From an archaeon (GTDB lineage: Archaea; Nanobdellota; Nanobdellia; Pacearchaeales; GW2011-AR1): a DNA stretch of 38,623 bases. Of this stretch, positions 37,064-37,873 are shown one piece after another. The DNA lies in NCBI GenBank assembly GCA_030639065.1, contig DAOWDJ010000008.1, forward strand, positions 1-38,623. Direction: 5' to 3'. Below the pieces are notes generated by a model. That model did no database searches, was not told where the DNA came from, and was given only the letters and a program-made list of their open reading frames with translations. A program made the position numbers and the translations under genes. How positions within the stretch are numbered: position 1 is the first letter of the stretch; each line of letters starts with the position of its first letter.

Positions 37064-37873
37064 ATGGAAGGTTTAGGTTATTATTTTAAAGAACTTCATA
37101 AATACCCGTCATTAAATTTGGAAGAGGAATTAGTCCTCGGAGAAAGGATGAGTAATGGAGATGCGGATGCTAGAACTAAGTTGATAAATCATAACTTGGC
37201 ATCTGTTATATATGCTGCAAGAAAATATCAAGGAAGGGGTCTTGATTTTGAAGATTTGATTCAAGAAGGAAATATTGGGTTAATGAGTGCGACAGAAAAA
37301 TATGATTTTAGAAAGGGGTACCGATTAGGTTCTCATTCCGAGTCATGGATACATAAAGGTATACAGAAAGCACTCGGAGATACGTCTAGAGCAATAAGGT
37401 TGGGTTATCACACATGGAGCAAACTTAACAGAATACATTATCTTATTTCTAAAGAACATTCTTCAAAAGAGATAAGTGAAATAATGAGTTACCCTGAGAA
37501 GAAAATCACAAAACTAATGATAATATCTAAGGAAGAATCTCTTAATGATTCGAGGTCGTATAATAACGAAGACTACACATTAATGAGTACTCTCCCTTCT
37601 TCCCCTCATCACGATGAATACGATATAGAACAAGACAGGTGGATCTTACAGGGGGATCTTTTATCTATAGCAGAAAAGCTACCCTCAACACAGAGTCTCA
37701 TTATAAAAAAAACATTTGGGCTAGATGGGAACGGATTATATACACAAGAGGAAATAGGCGTGACACAACTTGATATAACTAGAGCGCGAGTTGGACAGAT
37801 AGAAAAAAGAGCCATTGAAAAATTGAGAAATATGCCAGAAACAAAAGAGCTCAGATATTCAGCTAGAAGATGA
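37064..37873 (+). CDS. Sigma-70-family RNA polymerase sigma factor homolog (regions 2, 3 and 4 present)
   Basis: Region 2: [42 protein letters not shown], then [23 protein letters not shown]. Region 4.2 HTH: [31 protein letters not shown]. The ATG at 37064 is preceded by AGGA; a GTG at 37043 is an alternative start. Confidence 0.8.
   Translation: [269 protein letters not shown]

Follow-up and report, generated by a model that had tools for sequence, protein, structure and literature searches.

Why should an archaeon carry a complete bacterial-type sigma factor? Sigma factors on the one side and TBP, TFB and TFE on the other set the initiation of transcription in bacteria apart from that in archaea and eukaryotes. 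The question is raised by a 38,623-nt stretch of DNA (contig DAOWDJ010000008.1 of assembly GCA_030639065.1, referred to below as the window), which encodes close to its end a 269-residue member of the sigma-70 family, here termed window sigma (37064..37873, + strand). An initial annotation, made from the letters of the sequence, had described an intact sigma-70-family factor in an archaeal gene neighbourhood and had proposed that it was acquired horizontally from a bacterium or phage and kept intact. It had also suggested that the protein may have been repurposed, for example as a stand-alone DNA binder, as an effector acting on the RNAP of a bacterial partner or as viral cargo. According to the analysis presented here, the gene is of the sigma-70 family and resides in the chromosome of a Pacearchaeota (DPANN) archaeon, is accessory there and belongs to a small clade of short sigmas; we place the probability of this reading above 0.9. 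What the protein does is graded less firmly below. Related contigs and proteins are cited by their L and P identifiers, respectively.

Architecture and fold of window sigma

The open reading frame (ORF) is terminated by a TGA codon at 37871-37873 and has two possible starts, GTG 37043 and ATG 37064, the latter giving the 269-residue form that is called in five independent assemblies. Its identification draws on the ORF list, Pfam, alignment with SigA, RpoD and RpoS, an AlphaFold2 model and Foldseek. Residues 6-264 are collinear with SigA, RpoD and RpoS from region 1.2 to region 4.2 (phmmer against the PDB, E ~1e-37), and Pfam profiles are matched by region 1.2 (Sigma70_r1_2, 22.4 bits at a cut-off of 22; aa 5-33, 37076..37162, +), by region 2 (Sigma70_r2, PF04542, 51.1 bits at a cut-off of 24, E 1.2e-13; aa 40-109, 37181..37390, +, also supported by the alignment) and by region 4 including the 4.2 helix-turn-helix (Sigma70_r4, PF04545, 35.8 bits at a cut-off of 24.1, E 5.6e-9; aa 205-256, 37676..37831, +, likewise supported by the alignment). 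The description of the ORF as intact and full-length is thereby borne out. The initial annotation had read a region-3-like block between regions 2 and 4; while both of the latter score above the gathering threshold, the r3 profile found no match in the Pfam scan, and region 3.0-3.2 (aa 110-184, 37391..37615, +) is delimited by the alignment and by the secondary structure of the AlphaFold2 model. Here a sigma3 domain of three helices, from which 7 residues are deleted between 3.0 and 3.1, precedes a 3.2 linker of low confidence (aa 160-180). Region 1.1 is missing, so that window sigma is a short form extending from region 1.2 to region 4.2.

The AlphaFold2 model was calculated from an input alignment of 82 sequences and reaches a mean pLDDT of 90. 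Sigma2, the three-helix sigma3 and sigma4 are all folded, and only the 3.2 linker is uncertain. The best Foldseek matches of the model are sigmaS and sigmaA within holoenzymes. Group 1 and group 2 sigmas are distinguished by regions 1.2 and 3 in addition to regions 2 and 4, and all four are present in window sigma according to the r1_2 match, the collinear alignment and the modelled sigma3. NCBIfam models for RpoD, RpoS and RpoD_Cterm are matched with about 145-154 bits, although the equivalog cut-offs are not reached in NCBIfam (RpoD_Cterm 145 of 354, RpoS 152 of 379 and PRK09210 153 of 572 bits). Among known systems, the bacterial group 1/2 sigmas (RpoD/SigA and RpoS) thus share with window sigma the collinear 1.2-2-3-4 arrangement, the region 2.2 consensus and the best matches in sequence and structure. 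Window sigma differs from them by the absence of region 1.1, the 7-residue deletion, substituted -10 and -35 residues (see below), an archaeal promoter and the NCBIfam scores below cut-off, and there is no evidence of a bacterial core RNAP to go with it.

The top match in NCBIfam and PADLOC is MzaA of the MZA anti-phage system, which resembles window sigma through its C-terminal sigma domain. However, the match covers just the C-terminal ~230 of ~700 residues (model positions 474-706 of 726) and reaches 154 bits at a cut-off of 800. Since only the sigma part of MzaA is matched and PADLOC finds no partner genes, a role of the locus in this defence system was rejected.

The gene is resident in an archaeal chromosome

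The archaeal neighbourhood that had been proposed for the gene was recovered in the window. It comprises a PolB fragment (82-744), an M24 peptidase resembling MetAP (5975-6895), Cdc48 (11814-14132), TFS (16819-17127), NAC (20542-20907) and aRF1 (32883-33977), and ScpB is encoded as well. The aRF1 protein shares 84-89% identity with proteins listed by NCBI under Candidatus Pacearchaeota. Next to aRF1 lies the divergently transcribed, conserved neighbour valine-tRNA ligase (ValS; 33980..36382, - strand; NCBIfam PRK13208, 989 bits), a type A xenolog. It is followed by a calcineurin-like metallophosphoesterase gene (36431..37024, +; assigned by Pfam and synteny), which is located directly upstream of the sigma gene and serves as a conserved anchor, being found in all relatives with or without sigma. 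The arrangement of a co-directional phosphoesterase gene followed by sigma, beside valS, is therefore as originally described (Pfam, NCBIfam), and so is the shared AT-rich composition, with an even GC content of 33% in the window and 35.7% in the sigma gene.

The sigma gene lies near the contig end, as the window stops 750 bp downstream, and sigma factors are otherwise bacterial. Both facts would fit an artefact, in which a bacterial or phage fragment was mis-joined or mis-binned onto an archaeal contig. However, the junction between phosphoesterase and sigma recurs in ENA and Logan assemblies from three samples and two studies. Assemblies L006 and L007 of sample SAMN18200495 are 99-100% identical to the window and contain the same junction; L001 and L002 of sample SAMN18200496 carry it too, with the gene order GT2-ScpB-aRF1-ValS-phosphoesterase-sigma in L001; and it is found again in L008 from the unrelated run SRR32546281. 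Furthermore, a 120-kb contig of another Pacearchaeota genome (L124, GCA_023136775.1) has a sigma of the same clade, P0172, at the same position. Here the order is phosphoesterase, sigma P0172, topoisomerase I (topA), then RadA and ribosomal proteins L35Ae and L10e, so that the gene has archaeal genes on both sides. An archaeal promoter and the host composition of the gene likewise speak against an artefact. The junction in independent assemblies, together with the synteny in L124, excludes chimerism and mis-binning for practical purposes, and an artefactual origin can be regarded as effectively refuted.

Upstream of the gene, an archaeal TATA-box-like element, TTTATAAA (37035..37042, +), is situated 29 nt upstream of the ATG; in L124, the positional counterpart, both the motif and the sequence around it are preserved. 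Of the 40 window genes, 13 have this motif (TTTAWAW or TTAWAWA) beginning 26-29 nt ahead of their start codon, among them those at 16819, 18507, 26141, 33980 and 36431, against an expectation of 0.6 (binomial P ~1e-14). On sequence grounds, this position is the apparent signature of archaeal promoters with leaderless mRNAs, and its frequency among the window genes indicates that transcripts in this host are probably leaderless for the most part. The spacing of 29 nt would accordingly imply a leaderless or near-leaderless sigma mRNA. ATG 37064 is the likely start codon, since GTG 37043 would fall inside the promoter. Synonymous codon usage and the GC content at third codon positions (GC3) of the sigma gene lie inside the range of host genes, which argues against recent acquisition from a donor of different base composition.

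A clade of short archaeal sigmas

Close relatives of window sigma are rare. When 1.84 billion representatives were searched exhaustively with phmmer, the self match scores 591 bits and anything else at most 177 bits with 33-41% identity; no bacterial, phage or metagenomic protein in this set exceeds ~41% identity. The top matches, P0126-P0129, have a duplicated region 2, look fused or chimeric and were left out of the tree. A word-index search gave a flat distribution of 33-38% identity, the most frequent match being a family of 283 residues. Scans of GTDB species representatives, JGI metagenomes and IMG/VR returned generic matches of 26-47% and no close relative, the genome of the window itself not being among the matches. 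Further scans of IMG/VR, for which P0172, P0165 and the clade alignment served as queries, yielded no relative with the 7-residue deletion that characterizes the clade. When the short-sigma alignment was used as a profile query, the results were dominated by Firmicutes RpoD.

The 283-residue family (P0025; L003, L004, L005) is very common and ~35% identical to window sigma. Its contigs of ~110 kb are packed with short ORFs lacking a Pfam match and are phage-like.

Neighbour joining groups window sigma with a few short sigmas of 260-293 residues, in which P0172 is its sister in 71 of 100 bootstrap replicates. The deletion is present in 8 of 157 sigmas including window sigma. It reduces the segment between the equivalents of R112 and E136 from 32 to 25 residues, at a site reaching from the 'SRxIR' motif of region 3.0 to region 3.1, and as a rare indel it supports the short-sigma grouping. 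Two clade members are found on long contigs, and both of these have archaeal neighbourhoods: P0172, as mentioned above, and P0165, which has Rpp14 on one side and proteasome alpha/SBDS on the other and is not far from aCPSF1, Rad50/Mre11 and RNase J. On a short contig, P0133 comes after a TruB/Pus10-like gene. P0251, which lacks the deletion and groups nearby, is encoded near a ThrRS with archaeal editing domain and a YchF-type GTPase.

A canonical sigma of 505 residues with regions 2, 3 and 4 was encountered at L017 9200-10717, in a GTDB metagenome-assembled genome labelled 'uncultured Methanosarcinales archaeon'. As its neighbours, a Ser/Thr kinase and CoaBC, are non-diagnostic, this contig is probably mis-binned bacterial DNA and was not used.

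These results modify the proposal of horizontal acquisition. The bacterial-type ancestry of the protein stands, but the gene was not newly captured from a bacterium or phage, as judged from the ceiling of ~41% identity, from the codon usage and promoter, which are of the host type, and from the deletion shared with DPANN relatives.

An accessory cassette exchanged between Pacearchaeota

The sigma gene is not a constant part of this locus. In four relatives (L035, L036/37, L038/39 and L040/41), no sigma was found within 8 kb of aRF1, although their aRF1 proteins are 84-93% identical to that of the window and the backbone aRF1-ValS-...-phosphoesterase-...-topoisomerase I is retained. L036 represents an empty site, in which the topA promoter directly follows the phosphoesterase gene. 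Where a sigma gene is present, it may diverge much faster than its neighbours: between the window and L124, protein identity amounts to 85% for aRF1, 81% for ScpB, 66% for the phosphoesterase, 58% for ValS and 37% for sigma.

The opposite pattern is displayed by a block of high identity that comprises promoter and ORF (37025..37879, +) and was delimited by sliding identity, mismatch maps and synonymous divergence (dS). This cassette is 98.6-99.5% identical in other Pacearchaeota backgrounds, whereas the flanks are 60-90% identical. Between the window and L001, the block 37025-37879 contains 12 differences in ~850 nt and the dS of sigma is 0.034, as compared to 0.67-1.9 for neighbouring genes (0.67-1.0 for the flanking ScpB, aRF1 and phosphoesterase; ValS shows 57% protein identity). 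In L008, the cassette block shows 4 differences, whereas 17 are counted over the 139 nt of phosphoesterase gene ahead of it. From 6 nt past the sigma stop codon onwards, L002 and L008 are no longer similar to the window. From this comparison of sequences, sigma is an accessory single-gene cassette that diverges fast between lineages, one allele of which has spread recently across related genomes by recombination or transfer. The statement that the gene is kept intact in an archaeon therefore holds as far as an intact and resident gene is concerned, but not in the sense of stable maintenance, as the cassette is accessory, fast-evolving and recently exchanged.

At its two ends, the cassette has imperfect direct repeats of 10 bp, GA(C/T)GATTAT(C/A) (GACGATTATC, 37025-37034, and GATGATTATA, 37869-37878); they are short, AT-rich and were spotted post hoc, so that chance is a possible explanation.

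Such behaviour raises the possibility that the gene is cargo of a DPANN virus or mobile element, which was spread horizontally and either serves the element in taking over host transcription or was left behind upon excision. The near-identity of promoter and ORF across diverged backgrounds, the sharp borders and the repeats at both ends would fit this explanation. The locus is, moreover, a variable hotspot with a tyrosine recombinase gene in some relatives, although the recombinase may be a housekeeping protein because it is XerA-sized and adjoins topA. In addition, the best PHROG match of window sigma is a phage sigma family, and 'rpoS'-annotated genes, strongly divergent from known rpoS, have been described in predicted DPANN viruses or prophage (PMC12647753, Nat Commun 2025). 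The latter resemble window sigma in being divergent, DPANN-associated members of the sigma-70 family; compared by description only, they differ in that they derive from predicted viral genomes of acid mine drainage, whereas the window gene is without viral flanks. Phage sigma-70 factors (PHROG 351; P0025) are likewise compact, lack region 1.1, share ~35% identity with window sigma and are horizontally mobile. However, they have a region 3 of canonical length and phage-like surroundings, in contrast to the window gene, which is a single insertion among archaeal housekeeping genes. In L124, the phosphoesterase gene and topA are the immediate neighbours of sigma on either side; genes for capsid, terminase or replication were not found near the window gene within a sequence that ends 750 bp downstream; and the scans of IMG/VR found neither a close relative nor one with the deletion of the clade. 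Viral cargo is thus possible as an origin or vector of the gene and no description of the present locus, for which we consider it quite improbable.

Further variation was observed around the cassette. Two types of ValS, mutually 33-35% identical and both assigned to PRK13208, occupy the same syntenic slot among Pacearchaeota with aRF1 proteins of 84-96% identity. The type found in the window, L001 and L124 goes with the sigma gene, and the other type is found in four sigma-less genomes (L035, L036, L038 and L040); with seven related genomes, this association may be due to chance. The phosphoesterase gene, located between ValS and sigma, does not track the split between ValS types. In another Pacearchaeota lineage (L040 and L041, 4497-5423, - strand), a 308-residue AAA+ protein of the sigma-54-activator type is encoded between ValS and the phosphoesterase. 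It matches NifA, PspF and NtrC models with 200-230 bits, below their cut-offs; with it, this variable locus harbours another transcription component of bacterial type besides sigma. Finally, L001 (1-700), compared with window positions 27700-31000, joins the equivalent of 27021-27709 straight to the GT2/ScpB region, implying that a window block of ~3.3 kb is strain-variable (GtrA-like and GT2 proteins, and proteins of 503 and 214 residues without Pfam match).

Conservation of the polymerase-docking region and change of canonical DNA-contact residues

In bacterial sigmas, region 2.2 provides the main contact to the beta' clamp helices, and promoter reading and melting are carried out by regions 2.3, 2.4, 3.0 and 4.2. 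The residues behind these two functions were conserved very differently in window sigma (residue numbers of substitutions refer to E. coli). Region 2.2 keeps D403, Q406, E407, N409 and M413, with Q406 and E407 corresponding to Q67 and E68 of window sigma. In contrast, the canonical -10 set Y430/W433/W434/Q437/T440 is not conserved and reads H, S, W, K and Q (Y430H, W433S, Q437K and T440Q, with W434 kept), and the canonical -35 set R584/E585/R588 is not conserved either and reads R, A and G (E585A, R588G). E458 lies in the deletion. The sequence motifs quoted in the initial annotation are right, and the altered -10 melting residues that it had pointed out next to a canonical region 2.2 are real.

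For a broader comparison, 67 alignment columns were considered that are at least 80% conserved among bacterial-like representatives. Window sigma departs from the consensus at 22 of them, compared to 4.7 +/- 3.9 in other sigmas. None of these deviations falls into region 2.2 (aa 59-82), where all 12 columns are at the bacterial consensus, whereas 9 of 12 columns deviate in regions 2.3-2.4 (aa 83-107); the remainder are distributed over regions 2.1, 3.0, 4.1 and 4.2. The same trend is observed in the seven clade relatives analysed, with 1-2 deviations in the 12 columns of region 2.2 and 3-8 in the 12 columns of regions 2.3-2.4. Columns invariant in the clade comprise the 'L..EGN.GL' helix and 'SR.IR'. 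An unchanged region 2.2 together with altered DNA-contact residues argues that selection has preserved the polymerase-docking surface rather than the canonical DNA-reading residues.

Taken for themselves, the 22 altered positions among 67, which include key melting and -35 residues, would also be expected of a functionless passenger, left over from an old transfer and decaying without having been lost so far. The absence of the gene from several close relatives and of a known partner RNA polymerase (RNAP) could be read in the same way. On the other hand, the ORF is intact in every allele seen and its model is confidently folded, the host-type promoter is conserved, and region 2.2 is invariant across the clade at ~37% identity. 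Moreover, the three sigma alleles differ by 6 synonymous and 7 non-synonymous changes, the latter being fewer than expected under neutrality (P = 0.03, 13 variable sites in all), and the recent spread of a single allele is hard to square with neutral evolution. A mere passenger is accordingly an improbable explanation of the gene.

Alternatively, window sigma could be a stand-alone regulator, in which sigma2 and sigma4 act as RNAP-independent DNA binders in a genome that uses TBP, TFB and TFE. The helix-turn-helix of region 4.2 is intact and well folded in the model, the altered promoter-recognition residues would fit a new DNA specificity, and the promoter and codon usage are those of the host. 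However, the most conserved part of the clade is the core-binding region 2.2 and not the DNA-reading helices, and there would be no reason to retain regions 1.2 and 3.2. Full-length sigmas such as sigma70 are, furthermore, usually auto-inhibited for DNA binding without the core enzyme. We therefore regard a stand-alone function as unlikely.

Proposed mechanism

The conservation pattern would be accounted for if window sigma were an RNAP-binding factor, whose region 2.2 docks on the clamp coiled-coil of a multisubunit RNAP; judged from sequence and model, the chances of such a mechanism are about even. The most parsimonious target would be the archaeon's own RNAP, because the clamp coiled-coil is homologous across domains, corresponding to the beta' clamp helices of bacteria. 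This structure is also the common docking site of NusG/Spt5. The assignment of the target is more tentative than docking as such and is, on balance, doubtful. After docking, initiation might be modulated at sites that are read by the re-tooled regions 2.4, 3.0 and 4.2. A canonical role in -10 melting is not expected, since the equivalents of Tyr430 and Trp433 are His and Ser.

Carried to its full extent, the proposal would make the short DPANN sigma a functioning subunit of the archaeal (Pol II-like) RNAP, conferring specificity or regulation. It would be docked via region 2.2 on the Rpo1 clamp coiled-coil, would either direct initiation independent of TBP/TFB at promoters of its own or compete with TFE and Spt4/5, and would be maintained by selection and traded between populations. 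In this specific form, the proposal is speculative and has a low probability.

Several observations weigh against it and against the reading on which it builds. The support for the clade from sequence trees is modest: a core of four members is recovered in 48 of 100 bootstrap replicates, and the neighbour-joining grouping of eight, which takes in P0251 although this protein has no deletion, in 23 of 100. The patchy distribution, rapid turnover and allele sweeps resemble a gene involved in conflict or carried by a mobile element more than a housekeeping regulator, and the selection test is based on 13 variable sites. As the analysis covered one contig of the genome, bacterial-type rpoB/rpoC genes elsewhere in the bin are a formal possibility. 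Region 2.2 is held at the bacterial consensus, with no DPANN-specific drift, and a bacterial beta' target would fit this at least as well.

The last point leads to the possibility of a trans-domain effector, which would redirect or jam the bacterial RNAP of a host, partner or prey in the manner of phage sigmas. Agreement with the bacterial consensus at 12 of 12 columns of region 2.2, despite ~37% overall identity, is expected for a protein whose binding surface is still that of a bacterial beta' clamp helix. Interaction and conflict genes, for their part, typically diverge rapidly, are polymorphic for presence and absence and show recent sweeps of an allele, as sigma does. By virtue of these two features, this explanation stays alive. 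Nevertheless, neither a signal peptide nor a recognisable secretion or transfer module was found in the sequence, and no secretion genes were found nearby. The degraded -10 melting residues (Y430H, W433S) would weaken productive initiation on a bacterial core, though not competitive binding. To our knowledge, all cultivated DPANN have archaeal hosts, which also counts against an effector directed at bacteria. Overall, an action on a bacterial polymerase is rather unlikely.

Relation to previously described DPANN sigma factors

Sigma-70 genes in DPANN have been described by Castelle et al. 2021 (PMC8204110), who ruled out mis-binning with the help of markers encoded alongside, detected no anti-sigma factor and did not clarify the mechanism. 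The family reported there, fam00359, resembles window sigma in its sigma-70 type, in having archaeal marker genes as neighbours and in lacking an anti-sigma factor nearby, and the contig of window sigma is, as in that study, otherwise archaeal with mis-binning excluded. The two differ in that the paper stresses Woesearchaeota, whereas the host of window sigma belongs to the Pacearchaeota. The cassette behaviour, the TATA promoter, the deletion in region 3 and the contrast between region 2.2 and the DNA contacts were not found described in PMC8204110. Because the phenomenon has already been published for DPANN (PMC8204110, PMC12647753), the gene is less surprising than had been assumed initially: the existence of DPANN sigma-70 genes is known, and window sigma is a very divergent further member.

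Downstream region and other features of the window

Directly 3' of the sigma gene lies a GC-rich region with predicted stems (37880..38020, +; 46% GC as compared to 33% in the window), which may or may not be part of the feature. A possible folding has an outer stem (ATAACAT...ATGTTAT) around two hairpins, after which the conserved sequence GAAAG(T/C)G(C/T)A(A/G)CGTCCCC is found. The region is also found at L006 2578-2720 and at about 1050-1215 in L008, where a diverged copy follows the sigma gene beyond an extra 70-nt spacer. No match was found in Rfam, and the single-sequence fold is not better than that of shuffled sequences (z = -1.0). In a consensus of three sequences only, most pairs are kept and a few compensatory changes are observed. 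The region may represent a small RNA or a 3' element.

A Zn-ribbon ORF further downstream (38202-38522) was considered as an anti-sigma partner and rejected, as it is not conserved beside the sigma gene in L008 or L124. Elsewhere in the archaeal contig, a bacterial-type DnaJ-DnaK-GrpE chaperone operon is located at 6899-10304 (- strand), with a helix-turn-helix regulator (10383-10775) divergent to it. A protein of 377 residues encoded at 1983-3116 (- strand) has a C-terminal Schlafen/AlbA_2 domain.

Implications

A sigma factor that is kept where only archaeal machinery exists suggests one of two things: either it can engage a Pol II-like enzyme via the universally conserved clamp coiled-coil, or it is used against the polymerase of another cell, and either would be new biology. 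The locus provides a clean test case, being a cassette of one gene whose borders are defined, which has an archaeal promoter to itself and occurs in several natural alleles, and the 37%-identical positional counterpart in a related genome offers a further handle. The conservation pattern, with an invariant region 2.2 and changed DNA contacts, points to the surface that should be mutated first. If window sigma were indeed a working subunit of the archaeal RNAP, bacterial and archaeal initiation would be functionally combined in a hybrid.

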